This document shows, piece by piece, positions 10,503 through 55,504 of a stretch of 64,000 nucleotides of DNA. This stretch comes from Myxococcota bacterium (lineage in GTDB: Bacteria > Myxococcota > UBA4151). A program made the position numbers and the translations under genes. The stretch lies in assembly GCA_036338695.1 (NCBI GenBank), contig JAYZBQ010000022.1, positions 11,644 through 75,643 on the forward strand, written 5' to 3'. A model generated the notes under the pieces. The model was not told the origin of the DNA. It made no database searches and saw only the letters and a program-made list of their open reading frames with translations. The number at the start of each line of letters is the position of its first letter. Position 1 is the stretch's first letter.

Positions 10503-10580
10503 CCTACGCACCACCCGGCGGCCGTATTGAAGTCTTCGCCGCAGTAGGCCAATTTGGTGCCCTTCGCTGCGGAGGGTGTG

Positions 10581-14069
<3,489 letters not shown>

Positions 14070-37519: not shown

Positions 37520-38220
37520 CGGCGCCTACGCAGCGCCCAAACACTGAAAAACAACCACCAACCCGGAGCAGCCGTTACTGAACAACCTGCAGGTGTCTCA
37601 GCACCACAGACCTGCTCCACAGGGTCGACCGCAGGCCCCGAGCCCGCTTCGTGGAAAAATCGGGCGTCTCCGAGCCAGTTCGGGGCGTTCGCCCAATCGT
37701 CACTCCCGAACTGTTCGGTCTCACCCACCGCCACCCACAGCTTACCCGTCTCACCGGTGGGACTCCATGCGGCGAGATAGCCGACCCCAGCCGGTACGGC
37801 GACCTTGCGCTCGATTAGGATCCAGGACTGCGTCTGCGTGAAAGGCTCAAAGAAGAGCTCACGTTCGCCCGAAACTGCGAGTCGCTCCAGACCCATGTCG
37901 TCCGGGATCGCAAAGGGCGTCGACTCATCCTGGCTGGCTTGCTCGTGAACCACGCCGAGCGCTGGCTCGTACTGCGCCAGCCGATCGATCAATGGAACGC
38001 CGAGCTGAACGAAGATCTCGGTGGGCTCGTCCACCTCATAGCGCAGCCAAAGGACGGGCTGCTCACAGGTCACGTTATGATAGAGCACGATGGAGATGTC
38101 TGGGTTTTCGATGGTCCATGCCTGCTCAGACGTTCCATACTGCCCGTCAGAGAAAAAGGGTTTATGCGCCGCAGCCGGCGTCGCGATCAGCCCTAAACCA
38201 AGCCAGAGAATGGAACGCAC
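37492..38220 (-). CDS. secreted protein with MYXO-CTERM-like tail
   Basis: Signal peptide then AHKPFF; FFEPFTQT motif; AGCS + hydrophobic stretch + RRRR. Confidence 0.65.
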   Translation of the reverse strand: MRSILWLGLGLIATPAAAHKPFFSDGQYGTSEQAWTIENPDISIVLYHNVTCEQPVLWLRYEVDEPTEIFVQLGVPLIDRLAQYEPALGVVHEQASQDESTPFAIPDDMGLERLAVSGERELFFEPFTQTQSWILIERKVAVPAGVGYLAAWSPTGETGKLWVAVGETEQFGSDDWANAPNWLGDARFFHEAGSGPAVDPVEQVCGAETPAGCSVTAAPGWWLFFSVWALRRRRQGATSGER

Positions 38221-38271
38221 AGCACACACCTCGCTTACCACATGACCACAATACACTTTTTACCGTACGCA

Positions 38272-40848: not shown

Positions 40849-40888
40849 GGCGCGCAAATTAGACACGAGGTGATGACACCGCAACCCA

Positions 40889-40958
40889 AAACGACCAAAT
40901 CAACTTAATTTTCCGCTTGATTCCTGGTAAATCGGCAAATAAACGACCAAACCGACTC
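40889..40958 (+). promoter_or_regulatory. putative operator: two pairs of 9-bp direct repeats
   Basis: AAACGACCA-AATCAACTT (40889-40906) and AAACGACCA-AACCGACTC (40941-40958), the second just before the GAGGAGG RBS of the SOUL gene. Confidence 0.65.
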
Positions 40959-40972
40959 ACGAGGAGGTAAAA

Positions 40973-41641
40973 ATGAACGACGCTTTGCTCTGGATCGGCG
41001 TAGGAACGGCGCTCGTCGCTGGGCTTTGGTCAGGCTACACGGTCTTTTATGAAGGTCAGCTCGAGCAGCCGGCCTACGAGACCGTGCTTCGGCAGAGCGT
41101 CTTCGAGGTCAGGCGTTACGAGCCCTTCATCGTCGCAACCACGCCGATTCGTGGTCAGGGGCGCGCGCAGATGAGCGACGGATTCCGCTCCTTAGCGGGC
41201 TATATTTTTGGGCGGAACCAACCGCGAGAAAAGCTGGCGATGACAGCGCCGGTCCTTGCGACCACCGGCGAGGCGCTCGGTATGACGGCGCCGGTGATCA
41301 CCGACCGCTCAGCCGGGCACATGGCGTTTGTGATGCCGAGCCAGCGCACGCTCGCCGACCTGCCTCGACCGACCGGGCGGGGCATCACTCTAAAGACCAC
41401 TGACTGGGGTTTGGTAGCCGCTGTGCGCTACGCCGGCTACGCCACCGAGGAGCGAGTCCAGCGTCAGACGAAGTCGCTCAATGAGTGGCTTACCAAGCAG
41501 GGCTATGAAGTGCGCGGCGAAGCGCTAAGCGCTCAATACAACTCACCGAGTGCCATGCCGCTCTTGCGTCGAAACGAGATCCTCATCCCAGTACGCCCGG
41601 TGGTTACGGTGCTGTCGAGCTCAGCTTCGGAAGCGGAATAA
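40973..41641 (+). CDS. SOUL haem-binding protein
   Basis: EQPAY, FEVRRY, GFRSLAGYIFG.N, MTAPV (x2), MAFVMP, RRNEILI. Confidence 0.92.
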   Translation: MNDALLWIGVGTALVAGLWSGYTVFYEGQLEQPAYETVLRQSVFEVRRYEPFIVATTPIRGQGRAQMSDGFRSLAGYIFGRNQPREKLAMTAPVLATTGEALGMTAPVITDRSAGHMAFVMPSQRTLADLPRPTGRGITLKTTDWGLVAAVRYAGYATEERVQRQTKSLNEWLTKQGYEVRGEALSAQYNSPSAMPLLRRNEILIPVRPVVTVLSSSASEAE

Positions 41642-42497
41642 GCAGGTTAGTGCGGCGCTGGTAAGCCGCGAACTCCTCGAGGTGACCCCATTTGGCGAGC
41701 GCTCGCTCCTGCAGCAAGGGGACGCCGCTGCCGCGTGTCAGCAGCCCATAGACAAACACAGGCGAGCAGATCGCGAGCCACTGCAGCCCCTCGTAGTGGC
41801 CAAGTCCGGCTACGAAGAGCCCGGTCCATAACAGGATCTCACCGAAATAGTTGGGGTGCCGGGCGTAGGCCCACAACCCCTCATCGATCCAGCGCTCGCC
41901 CGATGCATTGCGCTGACGAAACCGCTTTTTCTGCTGATCTGCTACGACCTCAATCGTCCACCCAACCGTCCAGATGCACAGGCCGATCACCACCCAGGCG
42001 TCGAGCACAAATGGGCGCTTTGAGGTCAAGAGGATGATCACCGCAAACGAGGTCGTAAAGATCCACATCGCCTGGGCGGTCCACGCCATCACAAAGCGCG
42101 GGAACGAGTGCTTAATCTCATCAAAGCGTCCGTCCTTGCCCGTCTCGTGGATCCGGCGCGTCAAGAAGATGACGAGCCGCAAGGACCACAAGCCGACCGC
42201 CAGCGCGATCAGGAAGTGGTGGACTCCGGCCTGACCATTGGCGTGCGCCACCCAGAGACTCAGCCCAGCCATCAACAGAAACGTCGAGGTGCCCACCAGA
42301 TCGTAAAAGCGTTCACTCGAGAGCAAGTAGGCGGGGACAAACGCAAGCCACTGCAACCCCACAGCGATCAGCATGGCCAGCACGATGGCAGGCAAACCGC
42401 CCAGGCTGGCGTGACTGTGACCGCTGACCGCTGCGCTCAAGCCAAACAAGCCCAAGCAACAAAGGGCCGTGAACAGGTGCGCGGTGCTCGATTTCAC
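41604..42497 (-). CDS. DUF1295 / steroid 5-alpha-reductase-like membrane protein
   Basis: ERFYDLVG, KDGRFDEIK, ADQQK, GLWAYARHPNYFGE, SGVPLL. Confidence 0.9.
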   Translation of the reverse strand: MKSSTAHLFTALCCLGLFGLSAAVSGHSHASLGGLPAIVLAMLIAVGLQWLAFVPAYLLSSERFYDLVGTSTFLLMAGLSLWVAHANGQAGVHHFLIALAVGLWSLRLVIFLTRRIHETGKDGRFDEIKHSFPRFVMAWTAQAMWIFTTSFAVIILLTSKRPFVLDAWVVIGLCIWTVGWTIEVVADQQKKRFRQRNASGERWIDEGLWAYARHPNYFGEILLWTGLFVAGLGHYEGLQWLAICSPVFVYGLLTRGSGVPLLQERALAKWGHLEEFAAYQRRTNLLIPLPKLSSTAP

Positions 42498-42537
42498 AAC
42501 ACGACTCCTCGTCGGCGTTCGGGTGTTTTGCACCGAT

Positions 42538-42617
42538 TGGCCGATTATTTATCTTTTTTATGAACAGATTGGTCGATTTAATCAATCAGATTATATAATA
42601 AACGTATAAATCGACTT
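42538..42617. promoter_or_regulatory. divergent promoter with -10 box and 9-bp repeat operator
   Basis: TATAAT at 42594-42599 followed directly by AAACGTATA-AATCGACTT (42600-42617); minus-strand AATCGACCA (42570-42578) and AATCGGCCA (42538-42546). Confidence 0.65.
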
Positions 42618-42631
42618 TTAGGTGGACCCTC

Positions 42632-43534
42632 ATGAAAAGCGTGATCACGGGTGCGACGGGCTTGATCGGTATGCGGCTGGCTCAAGGCTTGGACCAACCG
42701 ACCATACTCAGCCGGAACCCGGAGCGAGCGCAGCGCCTGATGCCCGGCGCGCAGGCTGTTGGGTGGGCACCGGAGCGGGAAGCAGCGCCGGTCAGTGCGC
42801 TGGAGGGGCGAGACGTAGTGTTTCACCTCGCTGGCGAGCCCGTGGCGTCGGGACGCTGGAGCGATGAAAAGAAGCGCAGAATACGTGATAGCCGAGTGAT
42901 CGGGACCCAGCGCCTCCTTGAGGGGCTGGCAGCCTGCGAACATCCGCCAAAGACGCTTGTTGCAGCTTCCGCTGTGGGATTCTACGGTGATCGGGGTGAC
43001 ACCGTCCTCGACGAATCCTCATCGATGGGCGAGGGCTACCTGGCCGAGGTCTGCCGCGACTGGGAGACCGAGGCGCTTCGCGCCGAGAGCCTCGGCATCC
43101 GTGTCGTCTGCTTACGCATCGGCATCGTCCTCGCAGAAGACGGCGGTGCGCTCGAGCAGATGCTCCCTATCTTCCGACTCGGAGGGGGCGGAAAGCTGGG
43201 GAGCGGTCAGCAATGGATGCCCTGGATTCATGTCGACGACGTAGTCGGGCTGTTGCTTTGGTCCGCCACCAACCCGGAGGCGAGCGGGGTCTACAATGGC
43301 GTGGCTCCCGAGCCTGTCCGTAACGCGGAGTTCACCAAATCGCTGGCGGCAGCGATCAACCGCCCGGCGTTTATGCCGGTACCCCGCCTCGGTCTACGGC
43401 TTCTGTTTGGCGAGAAAACATCGATCATCATGGCGTCGCAGAACATCCAACCCCGGCGCGCCTTAGGTGACGGATATCGCTTCGCCTTCCCCCAACTCGA
43501 CGGAGCGCTGAACACCCTTTTTGGTGCGGCGTGA
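42632..43534 (+). CDS. TIGR01777 family NAD-dependent epimerase/oxidoreductase
   Basis: ITGATGLIG, HLAGE, SRVIGT, ASAVGFYG, GSGQQWMPWIH. Confidence 0.92.
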   Translation: MKSVITGATGLIGMRLAQGLDQPTILSRNPERAQRLMPGAQAVGWAPEREAAPVSALEGRDVVFHLAGEPVASGRWSDEKKRRIRDSRVIGTQRLLEGLAACEHPPKTLVAASAVGFYGDRGDTVLDESSSMGEGYLAEVCRDWETEALRAESLGIRVVCLRIGIVLAEDGGALEQMLPIFRLGGGGKLGSGQQWMPWIHVDDVVGLLLWSATNPEASGVYNGVAPEPVRNAEFTKSLAAAINRPAFMPVPRLGLRLLFGEKTSIIMASQNIQPRRALGDGYRFAFPQLDGALNTLFGAA

Positions 43535-44922
43535 GGCGCACCCTGCTGTGGTTTCGCGGTAAGGACTTACGCGTCGAAGACCACGAGGGGCTTCACCGAG
43601 CGCTCGCCGCAGACGAGGTCATCCCCGTCTTTGTCCTCGACCCGTATTTCTTCGATCCCGAGCGCGCCCAAGCGCTACCGCACCGAATGCAGTACTTGCT
43701 CGATGCGCTCGAAGAGCTCGCCGGTGACCTGCGCCAGCTCGGCAGCGAGCTCATCATCGAGCAGGGGCGAAGCGTCGACGTCATCCCGACGCTGGCTGCT
43801 GAGTGGGCTGTTGACGAGGTCATTGCGCAGGGTTGGACTGAGGGCTTCGGGCGCCAGCGCGACGCCCGCATTGAGGCGCAGCTGAGCTGCCCGCTGACGC
43901 TAGTTGATGGCGAAACGATGGTCTCACCGGGCTCGGTACGGACGCAACAAGGCGGAGCCTACAGCGTCTTTACGCCGTACTGGCGACGCTTCATGGCGAC
44001 GGCGCAGATCGCCCCACCACGACCGCGCCCTTCGCAGCTCCCTCCCCTTCCATCAGGCTGCGAAAGCTCGGCGCGCATCCCCTCGCTCGACGAGCTCGGG
44101 ATCCAGCGAAATCACCAGCTCCTCAAAGGAGGCTCAACCGCTGCGAAAGAGCGACTTTCGGGCTTTCTCTCGGCACGCGTCGGGTCGTACAAAACGGCGC
44201 GCAACCGACCCGACAAGGACGGCTCGAGCCGCTTAGGTCCTGACCTCAAGTTCGGCGCCCTCTCGGCGCGCCAGATCTGGGCGGCGGCGCAGCAACCGGA
44301 ATTACGCTCCGATTCGGGGTCCTTTCGGCGGCAGCTGGTCTGGCGAGAATTTGCGCACGACCTCGTGTGGAACCAGCCCAGGCTTCTCACCGAACCCTTT
44401 CGGCCCAAGTTTCGTGAATTCCCTTGGATTGGGCTCGACGAGCACTGGGAGGCGTGGGTCGAAGGCCGTACAGGCTACCCCATCGTCGACGCAGCGTCTC
44501 GCCAGCTCCTCGCCACCGGCTTCATCCCGAACCGAGCACGCATGATCACGGCGAGCTTCCTGACCAAGCATCTGCTCATCGACTATCGGCGGGGCGAGGC
44601 GCATTTTATGAAGTGGCTCACCGATGGTGACTGGATCCAGAACAATTTTGGGTGGCAGTGGTCAGCCGGCTGCGGGTGTGACGCGCAGCCGTATTTTCGC
44701 GTCTTCAATCCGATCCTCCAGGGCAAAAAGTTTGACCCCCAGGGCACCTACGTCCGGCGATGGGTTCCTGAACTCGAAGGCGTGCCTAAAAAGTGGATCC
44801 ACACGCCTTGGCTCGCCGAGCGCTCGCTCTTCGCTGCCGATTACCCGGCGCCGATCGTCGATCATGCGACCGCACGTAAGCGCTTCTTGGAACATGCGAA
44901 GGCGTATCTAGCGACCGTCTGA
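43531..44922 (+). CDS. phrB: deoxyribodipyrimidine photolyase (cryptochrome/photolyase family)
   Basis: WFR.KDLRVEDH, VFTPY, SRLGPDLKFG, WREF, GRTGYPIVDA, NRARM, GWQWSAGCGCDAQPYFRVFNP. Confidence 0.93.
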   Translation: MRRTLLWFRGKDLRVEDHEGLHRALAADEVIPVFVLDPYFFDPERAQALPHRMQYLLDALEELAGDLRQLGSELIIEQGRSVDVIPTLAAEWAVDEVIAQGWTEGFGRQRDARIEAQLSCPLTLVDGETMVSPGSVRTQQGGAYSVFTPYWRRFMATAQIAPPRPRPSQLPPLPSGCESSARIPSLDELGIQRNHQLLKGGSTAAKERLSGFLSARVGSYKTARNRPDKDGSSRLGPDLKFGALSARQIWAAAQQPELRSDSGSFRRQLVWREFAHDLVWNQPRLLTEPFRPKFREFPWIGLDEHWEAWVEGRTGYPIVDAASRQLLATGFIPNRARMITASFLTKHLLIDYRRGEAHFMKWLTDGDWIQNNFGWQWSAGCGCDAQPYFRVFNPILQGKKFDPQGTYVRRWVPELEGVPKKWIHTPWLAERSLFAADYPAPIVDHATARKRFLEHAKAYLATV

Positions 44923-45432
44923 ACCGCGCTGCCGTCGAAACACACGAACAGCACGCACAGGCGTCTTGCCTGGGACCTTGAAGGTGACCTCTTCGTGAAA
45001 AACCACGTCACTGATTCGACGCCGTGCGGTCGTCATCAACCCCTGCGGAAAGCGATCCTCCGTCAGGAGCGTATCCCCCTTGCCCAGCCAGCGAGATCGA
45101 CGCTCAGTCGTCCCGCCGTCGAGATTTTTGCCGATCGCCCAGCGGTTATCCACCGGCAGGACGATCGCCTCATCGGTGAAGCGCGTGATGACACGAAAGC
45201 TGATCCCGCGACGGGTAGCTCGAATAACCTGCTTGACCGCCAAAGAGCTCATCACCTTCCGAGCGATCCAGCCGTAGCCCATCGCCTGGAGTACAGGGTC
45301 CAGCGAGGTCGAGCTTTGTGCGTCGAGCGACCAGGTCCCCTCCATCCAGACCGCCGGTTTCGCCTGCGCCGGCTGGGCAACCGAGCACACGCCCAGCGCC
45401 AGCGCACAGGCTAGATGCACCGTGGTCCTCAT
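44908..45432 (-). CDS. secreted FABP/calycin-fold lipid- or bilin-binding protein
   Basis: Signal peptide ending AQA; 'EGTWSL..SS..LD..LQAMGYGWIARK' matches the FABP N-terminal signature; C-terminal 'AVRVFRR'. Confidence 0.6.
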   Translation of the reverse strand: MRTTVHLACALALGVCSVAQPAQAKPAVWMEGTWSLDAQSSTSLDPVLQAMGYGWIARKVMSSLAVKQVIRATRRGISFRVITRFTDEAIVLPVDNRWAIGKNLDGGTTERRSRWLGKGDTLLTEDRFPQGLMTTARRRISDVVFHEEVTFKVPGKTPVRAVRVFRRQRGSDGR

Positions 45433-46271
45433 CGGCTGCTCTGCGTTTGAGTCAGCTCTTGTGTCAGCGCCAGACAGTCGATGACTCTGCTGCGCGTCAC
45501 GTAGTGGCGCCCTCCCGCGCAGATCCTCTTCATCGCCACGTCATGATCTTGGGCGAACAGCGACCTTTGAGCGTGCGCCAAAGGCACCTCATCCCCATCG
45601 CAAAAGAGCCGGCGGTTCACCACTCGGTAGGTGGCTCGCTCATCCACTACGTCGACCTCGAAGCGGCGCTCAAAGCCCTCACCTGAGCGCAGCTCAAGCT
45701 CTGCTCGCCCATCGGCTAAGTCGAGCTCGGCACGGACAAATCCGGGCTCCACCCAGCGTTGGCGAATACGCTGAATCGGGCTGTACTCGGCGATGCAGTG
45801 AAGGCGCGCCAAGGCGGCGCCAAAAAAATAGTCAGGCGTCTCTCGGCCATTGCCCGGTTTGGTCATCACGACGCGCACGTGCTCTGGCCGACCGATGCGC
45901 TGCCGCAGCGCTTGATGCCAAGGCGCGAGCAGTTCGATATGCTCCACGTGCAGCAAGCGCTCCTGTCGCTGCGCCAACGAGAACAATGCCTGCGCAGCCA
46001 CAGGCTCGAGCGCCACCGGAAACTCCACCACGACATCGCAGTCAGCCTCAAGAGCGCGCCGCACCTGCGCCTCATGCTCAGCAGAGGGCGAGCAGATGGC
46101 GACGGCCTCGACGCGTTGGATCAGGTCATCAAAACCGACCTCTGGAGCTTCAAACTCGTGTGCAAACCGACCTCGGCAGACGGCGCTGAGGGTCGCACCT
46201 GGATCCAGAGCGATCGCTCGGGCACGGGCGCGCCCGGCACGGCCAACGCCAACGACCCCCCAACGCACCAA
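45429..46271 (-). CDS. biliverdin reductase A-like oxidoreductase (Gfo/Idh/MocA family)
   Basis: VVGVGRAG, ICS.S..H, VVVEFP, LHVEHIELL, ALARL, GEGFER, LFAQD, RVIDCL all track BVR-A motifs. Confidence 0.75.
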   Translation of the reverse strand: MVRWGVVGVGRAGRARARAIALDPGATLSAVCRGRFAHEFEAPEVGFDDLIQRVEAVAICSPSAEHEAQVRRALEADCDVVVEFPVALEPVAAQALFSLAQRQERLLHVEHIELLAPWHQALRQRIGRPEHVRVVMTKPGNGRETPDYFFGAALARLHCIAEYSPIQRIRQRWVEPGFVRAELDLADGRAELELRSGEGFERRFEVDVVDERATYRVVNRRLFCDGDEVPLAHAQRSLFAQDHDVAMKRICAGGRHYVTRSRVIDCLALTQELTQTQSSR

Positions 46272-46290
46272 CGCTAGTCCGCCTACCCGG

Positions 46291-46803
46291 TCACGCCGAG
46301 CGCTTCGCCGGTGCCGCTTCCCGGGGCGGGAAGAGCTGATGCATCATCTCGTGCCGGTACCGAAAGATCCGGTCCACGTCGTTGCGCACAAACAAGCGCT
46401 GAATGATGGAGCCACCGAAGACACGGTAGATCACGCGGTCGGTGCACATCGTCCCGCCGTCTTGCTCAACGAACTCATGGGTATGGTGCCACTGACGGTA
46501 CGGCCCGCGTAGTTGCTGGTCGACGAAGCTGTGCGGCGGGTTCCAGTCGGTGATCTCGGTGCGCCACTTCAGCGGGATCCCCCGCAGCCGAATCCGGTAG
46601 TCGATCAGCGCGCCGGTTTTCATCTCGATCGGCTTGGGCGTCAGCACCTCGAACCGTAGGAACTCGGGCGTCAAAACCTGCAAGTTGTAGGCGTCTTGAA
46701 AGAACGCGAAGACCTCGTCGATCGGATAATCTAAAAAGCAGTGCGACTCGAGCAGCCATGACCCATCCGGCTGCCTTGTTTGCGTTACGTCGTTGTTGCT
46801 CAT
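46291..46803 (-). CDS. SRPBCC family protein
   Basis: VFAFF.DAYNL..LTP, WRTEIT, FVDQQLRGPYRQWHHTHEF, IFRYRH. Confidence 0.9.
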   Translation of the reverse strand: MSNNDVTQTRQPDGSWLLESHCFLDYPIDEVFAFFQDAYNLQVLTPEFLRFEVLTPKPIEMKTGALIDYRIRLRGIPLKWRTEITDWNPPHSFVDQQLRGPYRQWHHTHEFVEQDGGTMCTDRVIYRVFGGSIIQRLFVRNDVDRIFRYRHEMMHQLFPPREAAPAKRSA

Positions 46804-47357
46804 CAGCTCAACTCCTTCTCATCACGTTGTTCTAAAAGCGCTCGAGCGCGCTCGCTCAGGAGCCCGAGCGCAATCGACCAGACGGCGCCGACCGCAAGAG
46901 CTCCTTCTAAGCCATGGATCTCCATACACCCGAGCCGCTCTCCACCGAGATAGGCGGCGGGCCCACCAAAGGCGCCTACTGCCGTCGCCAGCCCGCGGGT
47001 CCGAAGCAGCGCGAACTGGCTGTGCAGCGCCGTGGCGCCAAAACCAGCCCACAGCGAGATCATCCACAAAGGCACGCCCGCGAGCCGCATGCCCCCGAAA
47101 TAGGTGACCGACCCGGTCGCCGCCAAGGTGGCGTCGGTGGCGAGTCCCACCCCGACCGCCCAGACCAGCATCAGGAGCTCTTGCCGCAGCGCTCGACGCT
47201 CAAACCAGAGATGAACGGCAACGAACATCGCCATCGCGCTCGGCCGCACCCACCCGACACCGAGCACACACGCCCACCAAGCCGCCTGATGGCTAAGCCA
47301 TTGCGGCGCGCCGCCCCATCGCCAGATCATCGGACGCTGAAGGACGTCGGCTACCAT
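46803..47357 (-). CDS. DUF2878 family membrane protein
   Basis: HQAAWWACVLG, PLWMISLWAGF, GGPAAYLGG.RLG. Confidence 0.8.
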   Translation of the reverse strand: MVADVLQRPMIWRWGGAPQWLSHQAAWWACVLGVGWVRPSAMAMFVAVHLWFERRALRQELLMLVWAVGVGLATDATLAATGSVTYFGGMRLAGVPLWMISLWAGFGATALHSQFALLRTRGLATAVGAFGGPAAYLGGERLGCMEIHGLEGALAVGAVWSIALGLLSERARALLEQRDEKELS

Positions 47358-48304
47358 AAGCTCGACGGGTACGGATCCAGGTAGACCTGCCCAGCAAGCC
47401 ACGGATGCGCCCCTTTATCCAACACCTGGTGTTTGAGGAGCGTGAGCGGCGCGAGCAGCGACGTCTGGCCGTTTCCGTAGGCTCGGATCGCCTCCATCGT
47501 GTGCTGCCGACAGACACGGCTCAAGCGCTTTGAAACGTAGCCCATGATGTGCTGGAGCACGTTGACGTGGCGCCCGCGCGTTAGCCGATGCCCCATCACC
47601 GACTGCGCCTGGCCCAAATGATCTGCCAGCTGTTCCTGGGTGAGCGCACCTTTCAAGCTCGCCACCTGCCGACCGAGCGCTCGCTGAGCGCCAGGATGAT
47701 GCGCCATGTACAGCAGCTTGTGCGAAGCATACTCTGCCTGAAGCGCAGCGACCGATGGGTCCTCGCGCAACGCTTTGAGCCGCCTGCTCGTAAAAATCCG
47801 ATGCAGAAACTGCTGACGCAACATGGCGTCTTTGAGCCAACCCTCTTCCGCGCGCGCGAGCGCCGGGAAGTCGTTGCGCAGACGGTGCGTCAAGAAGCCG
47901 GCATCGCGCGCCACGACCTGCGCTTTTCGCTCGACGCCGGCGTATACCTTGACGCCGCTGATCCCGCAGGTGGGCGAGCCGCGCTTGAGTAAGAAACCAT
48001 CGAGGTCCAAACGAGACAGCCGATCGCTGATCGATTCGAGGGTCGAGTCCATGAGCGCGGTGTGATCTACGCCGCTCGGTGACTCGACGAGCGCGTTACG
48101 GGTCTCGCCGCGCAGCACTCGCACGACGGGTCTAGGGACACCCATACCCGCTTCCACTTCCGGGCATACCGGGACGAGTTCGACGTGCTGAGCGAGGACG
48201 TCCATCACGAAGTTATCTCGCTGGTGCCCGCCGTTGTAGCGGACCTGCTCGCCCATCAGGCAGGCGCTGATGCCGACGCGCGGCGCAAGACGATCTGCTG
48301 TCAT
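47351..48304 (-). CDS. YbgA family protein (DUF523 + DUF1722)
   Basis: GISACLMGEQVRYNGGH, VCPEVEAGMGVPR, SPTCG, HKLLYMAH, NVLQHIMGY, QVYLDPYP. Confidence 0.92.
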   Translation of the reverse strand: MTADRLAPRVGISACLMGEQVRYNGGHQRDNFVMDVLAQHVELVPVCPEVEAGMGVPRPVVRVLRGETRNALVESPSGVDHTALMDSTLESISDRLSRLDLDGFLLKRGSPTCGISGVKVYAGVERKAQVVARDAGFLTHRLRNDFPALARAEEGWLKDAMLRQQFLHRIFTSRRLKALREDPSVAALQAEYASHKLLYMAHHPGAQRALGRQVASLKGALTQEQLADHLGQAQSVMGHRLTRGRHVNVLQHIMGYVSKRLSRVCRQHTMEAIRAYGNGQTSLLAPLTLLKHQVLDKGAHPWLAGQVYLDPYPSSLW

Positions 48305-48306
48305 AA

Positions 48307-48387
48307 AACCACCCAAAACGTTCGCTTCGCCTAGATATTAGCGCCCAAACTGCGTATTTACAAACCAACAAACGACCAAAACAACTT
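48307..48387 (+). promoter_or_regulatory. putative operator: two pairs of 9-bp direct repeats
   Basis: AACCACCCA-AAACGTTCG (48307-48324) and AAACGACCA-AAACAACTT (48370-48387). Confidence 0.65.
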
Positions 48388-48389
48388 TT

Positions 48390-49637
48390 ATGTTCCTCAT
48401 GATCCTCGCGCAGTCGCTCCTAGCGGCTCCCAATAGCGACGCCCCAAAGCCACCGGATACACGCCTCGAGCTCGCCGGTTTACCTGCCGTGACCTATCGG
48501 AGCGACGCAGGCCTGGGCGCCGGCTTGCTGGCCTCCACGGCTCGCTTTCGACCGGGCTGTGTCCCCTTCTGTTGGCGGGCGCTGACGCTACTCCAAGGGG
48601 TCATGCAGTGGGATGAGCAAGGCATAAAGGTCCCAACACGCAACGCGGTGGTCTTCCTTGACCTCCCCCAGTGGCAGCGCCCCAACTGGCGCCTCCTCCT
48701 GGCGCTGGCCAACTTCGATGATGACGAGACAGGATACCGGGGGATTGGGACGCGGCGGATCGCCGGTGGGACGCGAGGTACCCCCTCCTACGGCTGGCAC
48801 CGTCGCGTCGCCGGGTTCAAGTGGCGTCAGCGGTGGCTTGGACGACCGACGTCGCCGACGGGGTACCTCGACGCCTACCTCGGTACCGAGCTTGGCTGGA
48901 ACACCGTCACGGCGCCACCGGGTAGCCAACTCCAGCTCGACCGCAGCGCCCATGGCCGGAATCCAGACTCTTGGGCTGGTCTGATCGCACCGTATCTGCA
49001 GCCGAGCGGTGATCACCTCGAGCTCCTGGTCAGCGCCGGGGCGCTCTACGATCACCGTGACCACGAGTTCACGCCGAGCCGGGGTGGATTTCATGAAGTC
49101 AGCCTGCGCAGTGGCCAAGCAGCGGACGCAGGCCTCTGGGCGAGTCTCTTTATCGAGTCGTCGTTTTTCAAAACTCTGATCGCTCAGCGAGTCGTGATTG
49201 CGAGCCGCTTGCTGCTTGATCACGCCGTGGGTTCGGTCCCTGTGTATCGCCGCGCTGAGGTAGGCGGTCTAATCCCGCATCTCGGCGTGTCAGGCGCTGA
49301 GGGCGTCCGCGGGGTTCCGACCTATTACGAGGTGGGTCAAACCAAAGCCATCGCCAACTTCGAGCTCCGCTGGCGCGTCGTGGACCACGTCGTGGGCCAG
49401 CAAGCCCTCAGCTGGCGAGCCGTGACCTTCGTAGACGCAGGGCGGGCGTGGACCGATCTGCACAACGGATTGCTCGAGCCGCTCGATCTCGACGCACCAT
49501 GGCACGCTGCTCTGGTTGGGTTCGGTGGTGGCCTGCGTCTGCGATGGGGCCAAGCGTTTGTGCTGAGGATGGATGCGGCCTTTAGCCCCGTGACGCAAAC
49601 CAGCGGGCTCTACTTTGGGACCGACCACATTTTCTAA
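48390..49637 (+). CDS. Omp85/BamA-TamA family beta-barrel protein, no obvious POTRA domain
   Basis: 'LPAVTYRSDAGLGAG', YDHRDHEFTPSRG, GVRG, NFELRW, FVDAGRAW, GGGLRL, terminal F. Confidence 0.75.
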   Translation: MFLMILAQSLLAAPNSDAPKPPDTRLELAGLPAVTYRSDAGLGAGLLASTARFRPGCVPFCWRALTLLQGVMQWDEQGIKVPTRNAVVFLDLPQWQRPNWRLLLALANFDDDETGYRGIGTRRIAGGTRGTPSYGWHRRVAGFKWRQRWLGRPTSPTGYLDAYLGTELGWNTVTAPPGSQLQLDRSAHGRNPDSWAGLIAPYLQPSGDHLELLVSAGALYDHRDHEFTPSRGGFHEVSLRSGQAADAGLWASLFIESSFFKTLIAQRVVIASRLLLDHAVGSVPVYRRAEVGGLIPHLGVSGAEGVRGVPTYYEVGQTKAIANFELRWRVVDHVVGQQALSWRAVTFVDAGRAWTDLHNGLLEPLDLDAPWHAALVGFGGGLRLRWGQAFVLRMDAAFSPVTQTSGLYFGTDHIF

Positions 49638-49832
49638 TCGCTTGACGTCTTCACCCATCAACAGCGGGGGCAGAAGCCACCGGCTCGCCCTGCAGAAAAT
49701 CACCGCTCGCCTCTTCACGGGTCATCAGTTGATGAACGCGCAGCCCGGAGCTAAAGTTGTCTACAGATAGTAACTAGTCACGGGCTTCGCCTTGTGAGAA
49801 GAACCGGCAGCCTTGAGGCGGGGGACCAGTTG

Positions 49833-50006
49833 ATGGACGCGATGACGCGCAGCCTGACGCTACAACTTGAGAGCCTATACGAAGAGCGCGCGTTTTTAGC
49901 GCAAGAGATCGGCGTGAGCGATGCACGCGACATTGTCGCGATGGTGCGCAGTCTGGAGGCGCAGCTGAACGACCTCTACGCACAGGTTGATCAACCGCAA
50001 AAATAA
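49833..50006 (+). CDS. small helical protein with two SLxxQLxxLY repeats
   Basis: 57 aa; MTRSLTLQLESLYEE / MVRSLEAQLNDLYAQ; directly upstream of and co-oriented with HTH-PYP. Confidence 0.6.
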   Translation: MDAMTRSLTLQLESLYEERAFLAQEIGVSDARDIVAMVRSLEAQLNDLYAQVDQPQK

Positions 50007-50035
50007 TAGCCTTTTTGCACGTTTTGGCTTGCCGT

Positions 50036-50053
50036 AAAGGTCCAAATAGTCCA
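50036..50053 (+). promoter_or_regulatory. putative autoregulatory operator upstream of HTH-PYP
   Basis: AAAGGTCCA-AATAGTCCA 9-bp pair; minus-strand AAACGTGCA at 50016-50024. Confidence 0.5.
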
Positions 50054-50081
50054 GCATAGCGACGTCTGGACAAAGAACATC

Positions 50082-50630
50082 ATGGCTGATCAGCATTTAA
50101 CGAGCACGAGAGTTGCGGAAATCCTTGGGGTTACGGCGTCAACGGTCAAACGTTGGGCTGACGAAGGCTCCTTGCCTTGCGAGCGCACCGCTGGGGGACA
50201 CCGGCGCTTCTTGGCGTCCGAGGTCGCACGCTTCCGACAAACAGAAGCAGACACCAGCGTGGCGCATCTGGCCACGCTAAGCGAAGAAGAGTTTGACGCG
50301 CTCCCGTACGGCGCGATCGGGCTCGACGAGCAAGGGGTGATCATCCGCTACAATGCAACCGAGGCGACGTTTTCGAACCACAAGGCGGACCAAGTTCTCG
50401 GGAGGAACTTCTTCACGCAGGTCGCTCCCTGCACCAACAACCGACTCGTCTTTGGCGCTTTTCGTGATGGGATCGCGTCGGGCTCGATGGACGTGAAGAT
50501 CCCCTACACCTTCACTTATGTGATGAAGCCGACCAACGTCGTGCTTCACATGGTGCGCTGCCAAGATACCCGGACCAACTGGCTGCTAGTCCACCATAAT
50601 ACGGATTCGACCGGCTCACTTATCGTGTAA
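50082..50630 (+). CDS. BldC/excisionase-type HTH fused to a photoactive yellow protein (PYP) domain
   Basis: HTH 'LTSTRVAEILGVTASTVKRWADEG.L...RTAGGHRRF'; PYP 'FDALPYGAIGLD..G.I.RYNATE...GRNFFTQVAPCT...YTFTYVMKPTNV' with Tyr42, Glu46, Cys69 and Met100 equivalents. Confidence 0.9.
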   Translation: MADQHLTSTRVAEILGVTASTVKRWADEGSLPCERTAGGHRRFLASEVARFRQTEADTSVAHLATLSEEEFDALPYGAIGLDEQGVIIRYNATEATFSNHKADQVLGRNFFTQVAPCTNNRLVFGAFRDGIASGSMDVKIPYTFTYVMKPTNVVLHMVRCQDTRTNWLLVHHNTDSTGSLIV

Positions 50631-50667
50631 GGGCTCCCCGCCGCGACGGCGAGGAGGAGCACGAACG

Positions 50668-51588
50668 ATGAACAAGAGCACCCTTTGGCTTGGCGCCTTG
50701 CTGGTCACTGCTTGCGGTGAGCCCTCTGAACAACCCAGCGACACCAACCGCCCCGACCTGAGCGACCTGCTCGACGCCGGGCCTGTAAGTTCGCCCGACG
50801 CAGGCGCTTCAGCAGACGCAGGCGTCGCGCCGAGCGACGCGGGGCCAAGCCCCATCGATGCCGGCGGCAACGTCGAGCCAGACGCCGGACCTCCCGCTCC
50901 GGTCGCTACCGAGCAACGCTACGCCATGAAGGCGGTCTCTGCGGTGCAACAGCGAAACCCCAGCCCGCTGGGGAACGAAGAGGTGCGCGTGACGACGACA
51001 CAGTACGTGCTGCTTGAGAGCGAGCGACTTGAAGAGGACTTCAGCTGGACAGAGACACTGTGCAGCATCACAACCAGCGAGGCGCGTTACCGGTTTGGGA
51101 TCCGCGCCAGCACCAGCTACCCGGCCGCCTTTGTGGATCACTTCCCGACCTTCGAGCGGACCGGGACGTGGACCGAAGCAGGCGAGTTCTCCGCAGGCCC
51201 GATGGCCTCGGTCGTCGGCGCTGAGCTGGCCAACCCGCTACGCGACCCACTACCCACCGAGCCAGGCGCAGGCGGGGAGATCGACTCCGACGAAGATGGT
51301 CATCCCGGCGTCACGGTCAACGTCGGCGGCGCCGTCTCGGGTTCCGTTTATGTAGCGCAGCGAAGCATCATATCGCTGCGCGGCCGAGAGCGCGACGGCG
51401 GCCGGATCGAAGGTCTCTGGCAATCCAATGACGAGCAGGTCGTTCTTGGCGCAAGCAGTGGGATCTTGAACCGACAGGTGGAGCGCCGCCGAGATCCGGA
51501 GGACGCTGCGAGCTTCTTTATTATGACCCCGATCGATGACGCGTGGGATTGCGACGACATCACCGCTCGGATCGACGAGCTGTTCTAA
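50668..51588 (+). CDS. lipoprotein of unknown function
   Basis: GAGGAG RBS; lipobox VTAC; DAG linker; DSDEDGHPGVTV loop. Confidence 0.7.
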   Translation: MNKSTLWLGALLVTACGEPSEQPSDTNRPDLSDLLDAGPVSSPDAGASADAGVAPSDAGPSPIDAGGNVEPDAGPPAPVATEQRYAMKAVSAVQQRNPSPLGNEEVRVTTTQYVLLESERLEEDFSWTETLCSITTSEARYRFGIRASTSYPAAFVDHFPTFERTGTWTEAGEFSAGPMASVVGAELANPLRDPLPTEPGAGGEIDSDEDGHPGVTVNVGGAVSGSVYVAQRSIISLRGRERDGGRIEGLWQSNDEQVVLGASSGILNRQVERRRDPEDAASFFIMTPIDDAWDCDDITARIDELF

Positions 51589-51989
51589 GCCGCCTCAACG
51601 GACGGCTCAGCGCCGTAAGCCCAGCGAGCGGACGCAGCGACCGTGGCGGTGAGCACGACGCCCCAGACGATATCGACCACGACCAGGCCTGATGGCCAGG
51701 CTTCGATGACGGCCCAGTTGGTGAACTCAAAGGTCGCGTAGGCGAACCAACCGAGCAGCGCGCCGCGCGCCGCCGCCATCCGCACGCTCGCAGCGGGGAG
51801 CGCGCCGAAGAAGACCACCACGGCGATGTATTGAACGTAGAAAAGCGCGGCAGCGCCGACCACGGTCTCTTGCGCTCGCAGCGGGCCGAGCTGTTCGTTG
51901 TAAAAGGATGCGGCGAAGACACCAAGCCAAACCAAATCCACGACCACCATGACCAACGCAGCCACGACAACGGCTCGAACAGAACGCAT
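51585..51989 (-). CDS. DUF2177 family membrane protein
   Basis: DLVWLG...FY..QLG, AYATFEFTNWA...WP...VDIVWG. Confidence 0.88.
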   Translation of the reverse strand: MRSVRAVVVAALVMVVVDLVWLGVFAASFYNEQLGPLRAQETVVGAAALFYVQYIAVVVFFGALPAASVRMAAARGALLGWFAYATFEFTNWAVIEAWPSGLVVVDIVWGVVLTATVAASARWAYGAEPSVEAA

Positions 51990-52035
51990 GGGCTTCCTCC
52001 TTGTCCAGCGAGCTCAAAAGAACGAATTGGATATT

Positions 52036-52097
52036 TATCCGATTTGAACTTGAACGAATTTTTCGATTGTGTATAGATAAACCGCATAAATCGACCA
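52036..52097. promoter_or_regulatory. divergent promoter with 9-bp repeat operators on both strands
   Basis: Plus strand AACCGCATA-AATCGACCA (52080-52097); minus strand AATCGAAAA-ATTCGTTCA (52051-52068) and AATCGGATA (52036-52044). Confidence 0.65.
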
Positions 52098-52106
52098 AGG
52101 CGCCCC

Positions 52107-52775
52107 ATGAAGAAGCCACAAAGCAGTTTTGAATCGACTATTTCGTTCAGCGCCTCAGCGACCGTCCCGACACGCTACGGTGACTGGGAGATGAGCACTT
52201 TTCACGACGCTCAAGGCGTCGAGCATGTCTGCCTAACGCACGGCGATGTCGCCGATCACGACGACGTCCTGTGCCGCTTTCACTCGGCTTGCATGACGGG
52301 TGAGATCTTCGGCTCAAAGCGTTGTGACTGCGGCGAGCAGCTCGATGGAGCGTTTCGCCGCATCCAGAAGGCAGGGCGGGGCGTGATCGTCTACCTCGCG
52401 CAGGAAGGGCGCGGGATCGGCCTGACCAACAAGCTGCGCGCCTACGACGTGCAGAACCGCGGCTACGACACGGTGGACGCCAACCGAGCGCTCGGCCTAC
52501 CAGATGACATCCGGAGCTACGACGACGCCAACGCAATCCTCAAGCTGCTCGGCGTGCGCAGCGTCCGGTTGATGACCAACAACCCTGACAAGCTGCGCAG
52601 CGTGCGCGAGGCGGGCTTACTCGCCGACCGCGAGGCGCACCTTCTGCCCGTGGGCGCGCTCGCCCAGCGCTACGTCCAGACCAAGCAGCATCGCATGGGT
52701 CACCTCAACGAAGGCAGCGCCGACAGTCAGCCCCTGTTCCCCAGCGAGTTCGAGACCCTGCTCAACGCCTCGTAA
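52107..52775 (+). CDS. ribA: GTP cyclohydrolase II
   Basis: HSACMTGEIFGSKRCDCGEQL, QEGRGIGL.NK, DTVDAN, MTNNPDK, RMGH. Confidence 0.95.
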   Translation: MKKPQSSFESTISFSASATVPTRYGDWEMSTFHDAQGVEHVCLTHGDVADHDDVLCRFHSACMTGEIFGSKRCDCGEQLDGAFRRIQKAGRGVIVYLAQEGRGIGLTNKLRAYDVQNRGYDTVDANRALGLPDDIRSYDDANAILKLLGVRSVRLMTNNPDKLRSVREAGLLADREAHLLPVGALAQRYVQTKQHRMGHLNEGSADSQPLFPSEFETLLNAS

Positions 52776-52778
52776 ACG

Positions 52779-53765
52779 ATGCCGTCTACACCATCCAATC
52801 GGACGCTGGCGGTTATCGGCGCAGGCGTCTCCGGCCTCACCGCCGCGGCGCAGCTGCAGCGATCTGGGTGGAGCGTTCGCCTCTTTGACAAAGGGCGCGG
52901 GCCAGGCGGGCGCGCTGCGACAAGGCGCAGCGCTTCGGGTGGCTTTGACCACGGCGCTCCGTATTTTACGGTGCAGACTGCGCAGGGGCGAGCGCTGGTC
53001 GAGCGCTTGCACGCTCAAGGGGTTGTGGCGCCGTGGTCCGGCCGCTTCGCAAGCGTGGACGCAGCCAACGCGTTCCATGAATCGCCAGCGCATGAACGGT
53101 GGGTCGGACGACCCAAAATGAGCGCGCTCGGTCGGTATCTGAGCCGTGATCTCGAGGTGAATTTAAGCACGCGTATCGTGACGCTCGGTGGCAAACCTGG
53201 CGCCTGGACCCTCGTCGACGAAAACGAGCACCACCACGGCTCCTTTCATGCTGTGCTCATGAGCTGTCCCGGGCCGCAGGCTGCAACGCTCCTACCCAAA
53301 CCCAGCGCGCTGCACGCGCGCTGCCTCGCGATGCGCTATGCCGTCTGCTGGGCTGGTCTCGTCGAGCTTACCGCTCAAGAGCCGTTTGCCTGGGACAGCC
53401 TCTCGTTCGAAGCCGGCACGCTCGGCGAGGCGTTTCGCAGCAACAGCAAACCGGAACGCAGCGGCGCCGAGCGATGGGTGGTCCACGCAGCGCCTGACTG
53501 GAGCTCAGCACATCGCCACGACGCGCCGGAGGTCGTGGGTCAAGCCCTGACCGAAGCCTTTGAAGAAGCTACCGGACAAAAGGTGCACACGATGACCGTG
53601 CACCGATGGCTCTACGCTCGAGCGCTCCAAAACGAGGGCGAGGTTGCTCTTATCGACAGCGAGCGACGGCTGGGCTTATGCGGCGACGGGATGACCGGTG
53701 GAGGCGTTGAAGCGGCATACATTAGCGGGCTCGAGCTGGCCAAGCAGGTGCAGGCGCATTTCTAA
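52779..53765 (+). CDS. renalase-like NAD(P)/FAD-dependent oxidoreductase
   Basis: IGAGVSG, DKGRGPGGR, FDHGAPYF, HRWLYA, CGD, VEAAYISG. Confidence 0.9.
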   Translation: MPSTPSNRTLAVIGAGVSGLTAAAQLQRSGWSVRLFDKGRGPGGRAATRRSASGGFDHGAPYFTVQTAQGRALVERLHAQGVVAPWSGRFASVDAANAFHESPAHERWVGRPKMSALGRYLSRDLEVNLSTRIVTLGGKPGAWTLVDENEHHHGSFHAVLMSCPGPQAATLLPKPSALHARCLAMRYAVCWAGLVELTAQEPFAWDSLSFEAGTLGEAFRSNSKPERSGAERWVVHAAPDWSSAHRHDAPEVVGQALTEAFEEATGQKVHTMTVHRWLYARALQNEGEVALIDSERRLGLCGDGMTGGGVEAAYISGLELAKQVQAHF

Positions 53766-53783
53766 GCGCAGCAGCCGAATCCC

Positions 53784-54221
53784 TCAGACGTTTTGAGGAG
53801 GCGGCTCAGAAGCTCGCCGGCTCGGGCGCCAGATATCGGCTGCGACCAGGACACCCGCTGCGATCACGAACTGAAGCGGCATGCGCGCCCACAAGAGCCA
53901 GCGCTCACGCGCCATCCCGTCAATGTAGACGTCAGCGACCAACATGTAGATGTTGGCTGGATACACGGCGACCAGCAGCGCCAGCAGCCCCCACCCGGCC
54001 AACCGCCGGGTACGCGACCAAAGCAAACCCACACCGCCTGCGACCTCAAAGAATCCGCTGATGTAGACCAGCTCAAGCGGAGCTGGCAGAAAAGGCGGCA
54101 CGATCGGCACGAACAAGCCAGGGTTACGAAAATGTTCGACCCCGACAGCGATGAAGGACAGCCCAACCAAAAGCGTGATGAACTGCGCTTTCAAGGGGCG
54201 GCTCATGGCGTGATCAGACAT
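53784..54221 (-). CDS. DoxX-like membrane protein
   Basis: GVEHF..P, IVPPFLP, SGFFEV, AVYPANI, ARMPLQ; start uncertain (in-frame ATG also at 54338). Confidence 0.8.
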   Translation of the reverse strand: MSDHAMSRPLKAQFITLLVGLSFIAVGVEHFRNPGLFVPIVPPFLPAPLELVYISGFFEVAGGVGLLWSRTRRLAGWGLLALLVAVYPANIYMLVADVYIDGMARERWLLWARMPLQFVIAAGVLVAADIWRPSRRASEPPPQNV

Positions 54222-54337
54222 CGGCTGCTCCCCTCTCAAGCTGCGCGCAGAGCGACGAGCAGCCGATGGCGCCGAAGCGCCCTCCCCCTTTTGCTCACTC
54301 GAGGCGCCCCGCTCCTTCGCTGCGCGAATAAATACCA

Positions 54338-54355
54338 TGAACGTTTTGTTCGATT
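54338..54355 (-). promoter_or_regulatory. putative operator: 9-bp direct repeat pair
   Basis: Minus strand reads AATCGAACA-AAACGTTCA, in the AT-rich divergent region before hemH. Confidence 0.6.
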
Positions 54356-54451
54356 TTAATATCAAAATCCAGCTAATATACGACCGCTCCCTGCGATCCG
54401 CCCACAGATGCGCCGCCTAAAGAGCACAGGCTTAGACAGGATACACAGACC

Positions 54452-55504
54452 ATGAACCCACGACGCACCGGCGTTCTGCTGACTCAACTCGGGACCCCCA
54501 AAGCTGCGACACAAGCCGCTGTCCGCCCCTTTCTTCGCGAGTTTTTGTCCGATCCGCGCGTGATCGACATCCCAGGGCTTGCGCGCGCAGCGCTCGTCAA
54601 CCTGATCATCGTCCCCTTTCGCACGCCGAAGTCGACCAAAATCTACCAAGAGCTCTGGGAAGTCGGCGGGGGTGAGTCACCGATTATGATGCACACGGAG
54701 GCTCTGACCGATGCGCTCAACGAGCGGCTCAAGGGCGACCACATCACCGTGCACATGGCGATGCGCTACCAAGCGCCGTCGATGGACGACGTGCTCGAGA
54801 CCATGCGGCTCGAGAACTACGACAAGATCGTGATCCTGCCGATGTTCCCCCACTACGCCTCGTCAAGCACCGGGACGGCGATCCAAAAGGCAATGGAGAT
54901 CATCTCGAAGTGGTGGGTGATCCCGGAGCTCGAGGTGGTCAATCAGTTCTACGACGAGGCCTTCTACATCGACACCGTGGTCGAGCAAGCCCGCAAGCAC
55001 GACCTGAGCACCTTTGATCACGTCGTCATCAGCTACCACGGGTTACCCGATCGACACGTCGACAAAGTCTATGAGGGCAAAGAGAACTTGTGCCGGGACC
55101 ACCACTGCGACGAGCGCGTCGATGAAGAGAACAAGTTCTGCTACAAAGCGACCGCTTACGAAACATCGAGATTAATCGCTGAAAAGCTAGGTCTAGAGCC
55201 CCATCAATACACCACCAGCTTCCAGTCTCGACTCGACGATAAATGGCTCACACCCTTTAGCGATGAGGTCATCGAGCAGCTCGCTAAAGACGGGAAGAAA
55301 CGTCTCTTGGTGTTCTCGCCTGCCTTCGTCGCGGACTGCTTAGAGACCTTGATCGAGGTGGGCTCAGAGTACCAAGAAATCTTCGAGGAGCATGGCGGCG
55401 AACACGTCCAGCTCGTCGAGAGCTGCAACACCGAGCCGACCTGGGTGGAGGGCTTGAGCGACTTCATCCGGCAGCGGCGAGTACGCCCGGCCAAGAGCGT
55501 TTAG
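54452..55504 (+). CDS. hemH: ferrochelatase
   Basis: LGTP, FLSDPRVID, MRY..P, PHYASSSTG, SYHGLP, FQSR, FVADCLETL.E. Confidence 0.96.
   Translation: MNPRRTGVLLTQLGTPKAATQAAVRPFLREFLSDPRVIDIPGLARAALVNLIIVPFRTPKSTKIYQELWEVGGGESPIMMHTEALTDALNERLKGDHITVHMAMRYQAPSMDDVLETMRLENYDKIVILPMFPHYASSSTGTAIQKAMEIISKWWVIPELEVVNQFYDEAFYIDTVVEQARKHDLSTFDHVVISYHGLPDRHVDKVYEGKENLCRDHHCDERVDEENKFCYKATAYETSRLIAEKLGLEPHQYTTSFQSRLDDKWLTPFSDEVIEQLAKDGKKRLLVFSPAFVADCLETLIEVGSEYQEIFEEHGGEHVQLVESCNTEPTWVEGLSDFIRQRRVRPAKSV

Follow-up and report, generated by a model that had tools for sequence, protein, structure and literature searches.

A predicted HTH-PYP one-component regulator of photo-oxidative-stress genes in a family of Myxococcota

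CarH and LitR photoregulators (TtCarH and the CarH of Myxococcales) combine an N-terminal MerR-like winged helix-turn-helix (HTH) with a C-terminal photosensor and bind tandem direct repeats at photoprotection genes (PMC9304148). The same order of domains is found in a 182-amino-acid (aa) protein, referred to here as HTH-PYP, for which binding to such repeats is predicted and in which the sensor is a PAS/photoactive yellow protein (PYP) domain instead of the cobalamin domain of CarH/LitR. It is encoded in a 64,000-nt stretch of Myxococcota DNA (assembly GCA_036338695.1, contig JAYZBQ010000022.1, positions 11,644 to 75,643; this whole stretch is called the window), within an island of genes at 40973..55504 that an initial annotation had described as a photo-oxidative-stress output module connected to PYP in place of RpoE-ChrR, LitR or CarH. 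The genome that carries the island, G000, comprises 3.36 Mb in 99 contigs and is 93.6% complete. The CarH operator has 11-bp units, nnnnTnnACAn (PMC9304148), whereas the repeat found here has 9-bp units, and tandem TnnACA was present in 0/7 promoters; unlike the CarH/LitR setting, four genomes of the family, G000 included, yielded no phytoene synthase.

Other described systems share single parts of this protein. CtMerR (PDB 8JBS/8JBT) has the closest HTH in PDB, and HTH_17-B12 relatives share the 9-bp tandem repeat and similar neighbouring genes, but CtMerR-type proteins are ∼260-330 aa long and carry B12 domains, compared with 182 aa and PYP here. BldC of Streptomyces binds 9-bp direct repeats, AATTXXXX(C), head-to-tail (PMC5859096), with the same period, AT-rich start and final C as the repeat described below, yet is a stand-alone 68-aa HTH lacking a sensor. 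Known PYP and its fusions (Ppr, Ppd, MCP-PYP, PYP-V4R and Rec-PYP) have the fold and nine pocket residues in common with HTH-PYP; HTH-PYP, unlike those fusions, carries a DNA-binding domain as its output within one polypeptide, and neither tyrosine ammonia-lyase (TAL) nor coumarate ligase (pCL) was found with it. Similar output genes are controlled by class II LitR with short LOV in Pseudomonas and by RpoE-ChrR/MerR in Vibrio cholerae (PMC9758184, PMC5241685); the LitR-type operator TGTACA-N12-TGTACA occurred in 0/7 promoters here.

A literature search for an HTH-, MerR- or BldC-PYP regulator found no paper describing one. The main text of two PYP surveys (PMC12826048, PMC9664959) contains neither 'HTH' nor 'MerR'. 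The supplements of the first list, without comment, an HTH_17-PAS protein (MBX2811747.1) along with another homolog labelled 'helix-turn-helix', and may contain further such rows; in that of the second, MerR and photolyase are encoded close to pyp in Massilia by genes of their own. Since PMC12826048 treats proteins >200 aa as multidomain, it would pass over most of these fusions. Judged by its sequence, HTH-PYP is a putative, previously undescribed variant of the CarH-like one-component photorepressor and not a member of the CarH, LitR or RpoE-ChrR systems.

The HTH-PYP protein and its predicted chromophore pocket

HTH-PYP consists of an N-terminal HTH_17/MerR-like winged HTH, probably of the BldC/CtMerR type (about aa 4-55), and a C-terminal PAS/PYP domain (about aa 60-172), joined in the AlphaFold model by a short linker, residues 56-63. 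The model has a mean pLDDT of 83 and PYP structures as its top Foldseek matches, at a root-mean-square deviation of 1.2-2.8 Å, and the domain aligns to PYP chains at an E value of about 1e-24. The nine residues that PMC12826048 lists for the pocket all occur in HTH-PYP: I79, Y90, E94, F110, V114, A115, P116, C117 and F144, equivalent to I31, Y42, E46, F62, V66, A67, P68, C69 and F96 of Hhal PYP. Y42, E46 and C69 form the triad that binds and tunes the PYP chromophore (PMC12826048), and among the matches listed their equivalents are jointly invariant in 65/65 aligned fusions. These comprise the query and 64 of the 66 top near-full-length matches among 120 listed of 216, the self match and one partial protein having been left out. 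The best PDB sequence matches of the HTH are CtMerR (8JBS) at 39 bits, RacA at 34, BldC at 32 and Thermus CarH at 25; its score against the BldC family NF033787 is 54, compared with a cut-off of 77. R24, which is also invariant, aligns with position 33 of the 6AMA chain; allowing for a 3-residue tag, this would be Arg30 of BldC, its base-reading residue.

Full-length HTH-PYP was found in 10 of 301 genomes of the phylum, among them G000 and all four other sampled members of its family, and also in G003. A quick-method tree of the HTH, built on 99 rows and 57 columns, intermingles the PYP-fused HTHs with the long, mostly B12-type ones; it shows 7 changes, of which the starred branches force 1. 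With 58 of 95 inner branches open, it fits more than one direction and number of sensor swaps. One record with an 82% identical HTH-PYP (L011) is titled as a taxon other than that of the remaining close matches and is possibly mislabelled. In a sister genus (L094:3431-5496, L095:3805-5882) the genes convergent with HTH-PYP encode a metallo-beta-lactamase-fold protein and a GAF-HD protein.

Tandem 9-bp repeats and the predicted regulon

Gibbs sampling of ten island promoters from three genomes of the same genus, with G000 left out, returned a tandem 9-bp direct repeat with an information content of 18.6, compared with about 12 in shuffles. The unit is about AAAnCGnYC (unit consensus AAAACGACC). 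When the resulting weight matrix was applied to the 1145 intergenic regions of G000, defined by our own rough gene calls, six island promoters ranked 3, 10, 13, 16, 18 and 27, and a site at 38271, just outside the island, ranked first. The ranks within the island are partly circular, since the training promoters are orthologs, whereas the sites outside it are independent. Scores of at least 15 were reached by 23 regions of G000 compared with 0-3 in each of 10 dinucleotide shuffles, and paired half-sites peaked at a period of 9 (19 pairs, versus 1-4 at periods 7, 8 and 10-13). The exact pattern outnumbered its reversed-pattern control 21 to 0 in G000 (again partly circular) and, in genomes that had no part in training, 10 to 0 in G005 and 5 to 1 in G004. 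A generic repeat finder gave no report of 9-bp units. The initial annotation had placed 9-bp repeats beside each unit of the island; this holds for the six promoters but not for the small open reading frame (ORF) that precedes HTH-PYP, which has none directly upstream (rank 931).

The predicted regulon reaches well beyond the island. Elsewhere in G000, sites were found at an operon of a photolyase-related gene (DPRP) with an epimerase and a short-chain dehydrogenase, at an FAD oxidoreductase-DUF1365-cfa operon, at two glutathione peroxidase genes (one site lying inside the called start region), at fasciclin, CIA30 and rhodopsin genes, and at genes for a CysJ-like flavoprotein and a desaturase, all of these outside targets being named post hoc, after the matches had been seen. 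There is clear overlap of the predicted targets with the described light regulons of Pseudomonas, which include phrB, cryB-like, short-chain dehydrogenase, FAD oxidoreductase and ufaM genes (PMC9758184), and of Vibrio, with cfa and photolyases (PMC5241685). The G000 rhodopsin gene (L112:3393-4097; C80:5392-6096) is preceded by several repeat sites, and its product is 81% identical to one in G057. Five relatives within the family yielded no rhodopsin, and four rhodopsin loci from other families lack a site, so this link is confined to G000.

Conservation after REARRANGEMENT showed the island to be syntenic within the genus only, and the island as a block was rejected as a conserved unit; in G004 and G005, which belong to the same family and another genus, HTH-PYP lies beside unrelated genes. 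In these two genomes, respectively, 3/5 and 4/10 exact matches lie upstream of homologs of site-bearing G000 genes: SOUL and phrB/YbgA in both, ribA and exbB in G005 and an uncharacterised gene in G004. DPRP, which was not a training locus, is preceded by sites in 5/5 relatives of the family. Sites also precede the small-ORF/HTH-PYP unit in G004 and G005, and were found upstream of HTH-PYP or its operon throughout G000-G005. The regulon claim is limited to the family of G000.

Weaker sites in G000, at ranks 22-33 (C2:13316-13789, C24:11217-13988 and C19:24310-25086), are followed by genes that by eye resemble nickel superoxide dismutase, aconitase B and exonuclease III. An exbB/exbD-like pair (L107:2028-3616 and L142) has a repeat site upstream in G000 and G005, and one also precedes a fatty-acid desaturase/alkane-hydroxylase-like gene that is followed by a TetR regulator (L102:9405-11010).

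Which protein reads the repeat was investigated in relatives that match only the HTH. In the 260 bp upstream of 47 such genes, compared with single-base shuffles, the matrix gave p<=0.05 for 29, mostly 40-120 bp before the HTH match (L013-L059), although many of the 47 are related and so not independent. The genomes concerned span Ignavibacteriota, Bacteroidota, Myxococcota and others. B12-binding domains were present in 18 of the 20 relatives scanned, and the loci contain TIGR01777 (25/47) and photolyase (15/47) genes. Taken together, these data indicate that this type of HTH goes with this repeat and with this kind of target.

Other regulators were sought in the genomes of the family. The ChrR anti-sigma cupin was found in 0/6, while control genomes gave matches; phytochrome was found in 0/6 and BLUF in 0/4, and a search of G000 found no LOV-like motif. 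Six family genomes, four of them at least 92% complete, yielded no B12-type regulator: B12-binding_2 matches sit in 1200-aa frames, i.e. methionine synthase, in five of them, and there were none in a 59% complete genome. In G000, G001, G004 and G005, MerR_1 matched nothing besides HTH-PYP and a single short MerR. TGATC-type RpoE promoters numbered 0 in the six island promoters, with 1 loose match near 38271. The searches of family genomes thus turned up no ChrR, CarH-type, BLUF or phytochrome gene, which leaves HTH-PYP as the one candidate binder among the regulators sought; it very probably binds the repeats directly. It is also the sole regulator recognised among the island ORFs scanned, as had been proposed initially. 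The idea of a familiar output module on a different sensor is strengthened by the tie between repeat and HTH type and by the recurrence of the same gene families genome-wide and in the sister genus. That reading is refined in that the HTH is itself of a CarH-like (CtMerR/BldC) type: rather than an unrelated circuit, the arrangement is better described as a B12-repressor chassis in which PYP takes the place of the B12 sensor.

Signal input, the 57-aa protein and alternative explanations

With moderate confidence, we propose that HTH-PYP, as a one-component regulator gated by blue light, controls a photo-oxidative-stress regulon across the genome in this family, most likely by repression. Its BldC-like HTH would, in the dark, coat the tandem 9-bp repeats head-to-tail and repress its own promoter together with photolyase, photolyase-related, cfa/DUF1365, ribA, hemH and SOUL genes, and further the glutathione peroxidase, fasciclin, CIA30 and rhodopsin genes. 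Blue light would isomerise a hydroxycinnamate thioester on Cys117, and partial unfolding, which is known for PYP (PMC12826048), would reach the short HTH linker so that the DNA is released, possibly aided by a 57-aa partner. HTH-PYP would in this way fill the role of B12-dependent relatives with which it shares HTH and operator. Repression, rather than activation, is likely; it is argued by analogy, since a sigma70 consensus scan mapped no promoters. It is fairly probable that light is sensed through a p-coumaric acid-type chromophore.

Several findings weigh against this proposal. The PYP domain scores 111.8 against TIGR02373, below the cut-off of 143.05, which was also reached by 0 matches in the 301 phylum genomes. 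No TAL was found in G000, where the single ammonia-lyase is HutH, and G001, G004, G005 and G060 likewise contain a single lyase apiece, with an identical SH motif; coumarate ligase (TIGR02372) remained below cut-off in G000 and in 13/13 other genomes, ten with HTH-PYP. Several top-ranked sites flank genes without a known link to light, and a consensus scan found 0 sigma70-like promoters with which the sites might overlap. Outside the family, five HTH-PYP genomes (G060, G025, G062, G077 and G102) have no site scoring at least 10 at HTH-PYP, and the photolyase loci found in four of these five have none either; in G060 and G062 the sites instead precede coexisting B12-type paralogs. The exact pattern is not enriched over its reversed control in G060 (7 versus 9) or G062 (2 versus 5), and it is raised in two genomes without HTH-PYP, G057 (11 versus 4) and G008 (11 versus 6).

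The product of the gene immediately 5′ of HTH-PYP is 57 aa long, contains the SLxxQLxxLY motif twice and has 10 acidic (D/E) compared with 5 basic (K/R) residues. The gene adjoins HTH-PYP in 10/11 genomes. At E<=1e-6 the protein was found in 9/301 genomes, each of them one of the 10 that carry HTH-PYP, and in 0/41 other PYP-bearing genomes; it was not found in G002, where HTH-PYP and the sites are present. Inspection by eye also showed diverged versions next to the single-domain PYPs of G047, G210 and G278. The repeat defines a family of 457 clusters, and a PYP-like domain forms the end of 28 of the 45 members scanned, which were chosen mainly among the longer of 150 listed; the chromophore cysteine was present in 0/33 pocket-motif matches among them. 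Because the protein co-occurs with HTH-PYP and the repeat is fused to PYP-like domains, the repeat is a candidate PYP-binding module and the 57-aa protein a likely partner of HTH-PYP. A neighbouring gene of Rc-PYP likewise encodes a light-dependent partner, PBP (bioRxiv 10.1101/2021.06.01.446672). PBP has 142 aa in helices and sheets whereas the candidate here is a 57-aa helical repeat. An ESM Atlas search with the small protein was uninformative (best score 0.80, unnamed clusters). The family includes long proteins (P0152-P0218) with up to 14 copies of the repeat that end in a PYP-like domain without the chromophore cysteine. In G278, G210 and G047, single-domain PYP and repeat proteins have as a neighbour an unnamed helical domain of about 140 aa (L130:985-1416, L131 and L129:1681-2700); it seems to be fused to the repeat in P0182 and P0216 and was not found in G000.

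The alternative that survives best, although we regard it as unlikely, is that HTH-PYP controls the regulon in response to a chemical input, with light acting indirectly; the input would be an algal or prey hydroxycinnamate, a related ligand, or singlet oxygen or peroxide acting as oxidant of Cys117. The failure to find TAL or pCL in the family agrees with this, as do predicted targets that include peroxidases and a probable nickel superoxide dismutase. The repeat-fused PYP-like domains point the same way since, having no cysteine, they suggest that the PYP clade also works without a covalent chromophore. However, the Y42, E46 and C69 equivalents are invariant in the fusions, and the sister class with B12, which PYP would have replaced, is a light sensor (CtMerR, PMC11796333). 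Among pyp operons generally TAL occurs in only 5% and pCL in 32%, and outside uptake is allowed for (PMC12826048, PMC9664959).

It is improbable that the repeats are read by another factor, either a B12-type paralog in unassembled DNA or an excisionase-like protein on contig C48, with HTH-PYP as a target or co-regulator. The sites at B12-type genes in G060 and G062, the incompleteness of the genomes and one weak extra HTH match (E 0.0007) leave some room for such a factor. Against it stand the six family genomes in which no B12-type regulator was found, the score of the C48 protein (20 bits versus 95, on a long branch) and the sites upstream of HTH-PYP or its operon in G000-G005. Least probable of all is a light-sensing HTH-PYP that acts as an activator or DNA-bending factor, or whose release needs capture by the 57-aa protein in a two-protein switch: the sigma70 scan without promoter matches, the strong distortion of DNA by BldC (PMC5859096) and an acidic small protein confined to HTH-PYP genomes would fit, but CarH, CtMerR-like and class II LitR proteins are described or proposed as dark repressors (PMC9304148, PMC11796333, PMC9758184), and G002 has HTH-PYP and sites where the small protein was not found.

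For a light-gated HTH-PYP, it is plausible that the chromophore is scavenged from outside, because senescing Emiliania produces p-coumaric acid (PMC4807370) and because G000 has a rhodopsin although no phytoene synthase was found there. A second ammonia-lyase in G025 was rejected as a chromophore source, since its motif differs (YHGCG) and its gene is not beside HTH-PYP. CarF (PF10520) was found in 0/4 genomes, but control genomes gave no match either.

Gene content of the island and implications

All genes named in the initial annotation are present in the island, and ORFs and profile scans agree with the stated families (Table 1); the product of 52779..53765 is an FAD-dependent oxidoreductase by family match and 'renalase-like' in the reading of the initial annotation, which we share. 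The short divergent units described there resolve into the small-ORF/HTH-PYP unit and four divergent pairs; a DsbD-N gene is in addition divergent from SOUL. The intergenic gaps are AT-rich, with a G+C content of 0.39-0.51 in 6/7 gaps compared with 0.64 for the genome. The island also holds genes not known for light stress, namely those for Omp85, a putative lipoprotein, Gfo/Idh and two uncharacterised ORFs.

Table 1. Genes and predicted repeat sites of the island and its flank (window coordinates)
Feature	Coordinates	Strand	Basis or remark
HTH-PYP, 182 aa	50082..50630	+	HTH/PYP domain matches, AlphaFold model; proposed light-gated repressor
57-aa acidic helical protein, two SLxxQLxxLY-like repeats	49833..50006	+	no Pfam family; proposed HTH-PYP partner
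Predicted sites upstream of HTH-PYP	50008-50025; 50035-50052	-; +	matrix match; candidate autoregulation; relatives too
Tandem 9-bp repeat sites upstream of SOUL	40888-40905; 40940-40957	+	SOUL upstream sites also in G004, G005
SOUL haem-binding protein	40973..41641	+	family match
DUF1295 membrane protein	41604..42533	-	family match
Back-to-back predicted sites, DUF1295/TIGR01777 divergent promoter	42562-42579; 42599-42616	-; +	
TIGR01777 (YfcH-like) oxidoreductase	42632..43534	+	family match
DNA photolyase	43531..44922	+	PF00875 + PF03441
Secreted-type protein without family, end of YbgA unit	44908..45432	-	
Gfo/Idh/MocA oxidoreductase	45429..46271	-	family match
SRPBCC (polyketide cyclase-like) protein	46291..46803	-	family match
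DUF2878 protein	46803..47402	-	family match; start codon uncertain
YbgA-like protein	47351..48316	-	PF04463 + DUF1722
Predicted sites, YbgA/Omp85 divergent promoter	48306-48323; 48369-48386	+	
Omp85-family protein	48390..49637	+	family match
Putative lipoprotein downstream of HTH-PYP	50668..51588	+	no assigned function
DUF2177 membrane protein	51585..51989	-	family match
Predicted sites, DUF2177/ribA divergent promoter	52052-52069; 52079-52105	-; +	three units in the plus-strand site; ribA upstream site also in G005
ribA, GTP cyclohydrolase II	52107..52775	+	above NCBIfam cut-off
FAD-dependent oxidoreductase	52779..53765	+	family match
DoxX/MauE-like membrane protein	53784..54365	-	weak matches, E about 1e-3; probable start near 54221
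Strong predicted site, DoxX/hemH divergent promoter	54339..54356	-	
hemH, ferrochelatase	54452..55504	+	above cut-off
Best-scoring site of the genome	38271..38297	+	three units; outside the island
Uncharacterised protein beside the 38271 site	37492..38256	-	homolog after YbgA-like gene in G004, G005

The protein beside the best-scoring site is probably a member of the regulon, because its homolog follows the YbgA-like gene in two relatives of another genus. Redoxin and DsbD-N genes (window 39305-40884), divergent from SOUL with a common promoter region, may be members as well. A D12-class adenine DNA methyltransferase gene adjoins the island (window 36680-37519), and no restriction partner was noticed. 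Large proteins with many cysteine-rich (DUF4215-like) repeats, with DNA periods of 96 bp and 117 bp, are encoded at window 57047-59581 and 10554-14069. Metatranscriptomes were set aside as expression evidence: only two runs contained parts of the island, in shares of 0.16 and 0.05 and in contigs without strand or light/dark contrast, which say nothing on level, induction or habitat.

Chromophore domains used directly in transcription factors make up a short list, LOV and B12; if the proposal is correct, PYP would join them, in a very small blue-light switch. How PYP passes its signal on to the output is singled out in recent surveys as the main gap (PMC12826048, PMC9664959). With sensor and output in a single chain of 182 aa, and with an operator and regulon predicted for it, this relay becomes testable in vitro and in E. 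coli. Two further predictions come from the analysis: an operator for the B12 repressors of the CtMerR type, and a repeat family, comprising 457 clusters, that may bind PYP. For the organism itself a broader picture may be drawn tentatively, and we hold it to be doubtful as a whole: PYP would have replaced the B12 photoreceptor on the same HTH and operator and would run the whole light regulon, including rhodopsin. The cell apparently lacks the means to make either p-coumarate or carotenoids, so scavenged pigments might arm both light systems. HTH-PYP might then act as an AND gate that requires blue light together with a hydroxycinnamate from algae or prey, tuned by small repeat proteins of a new PYP-binding family.

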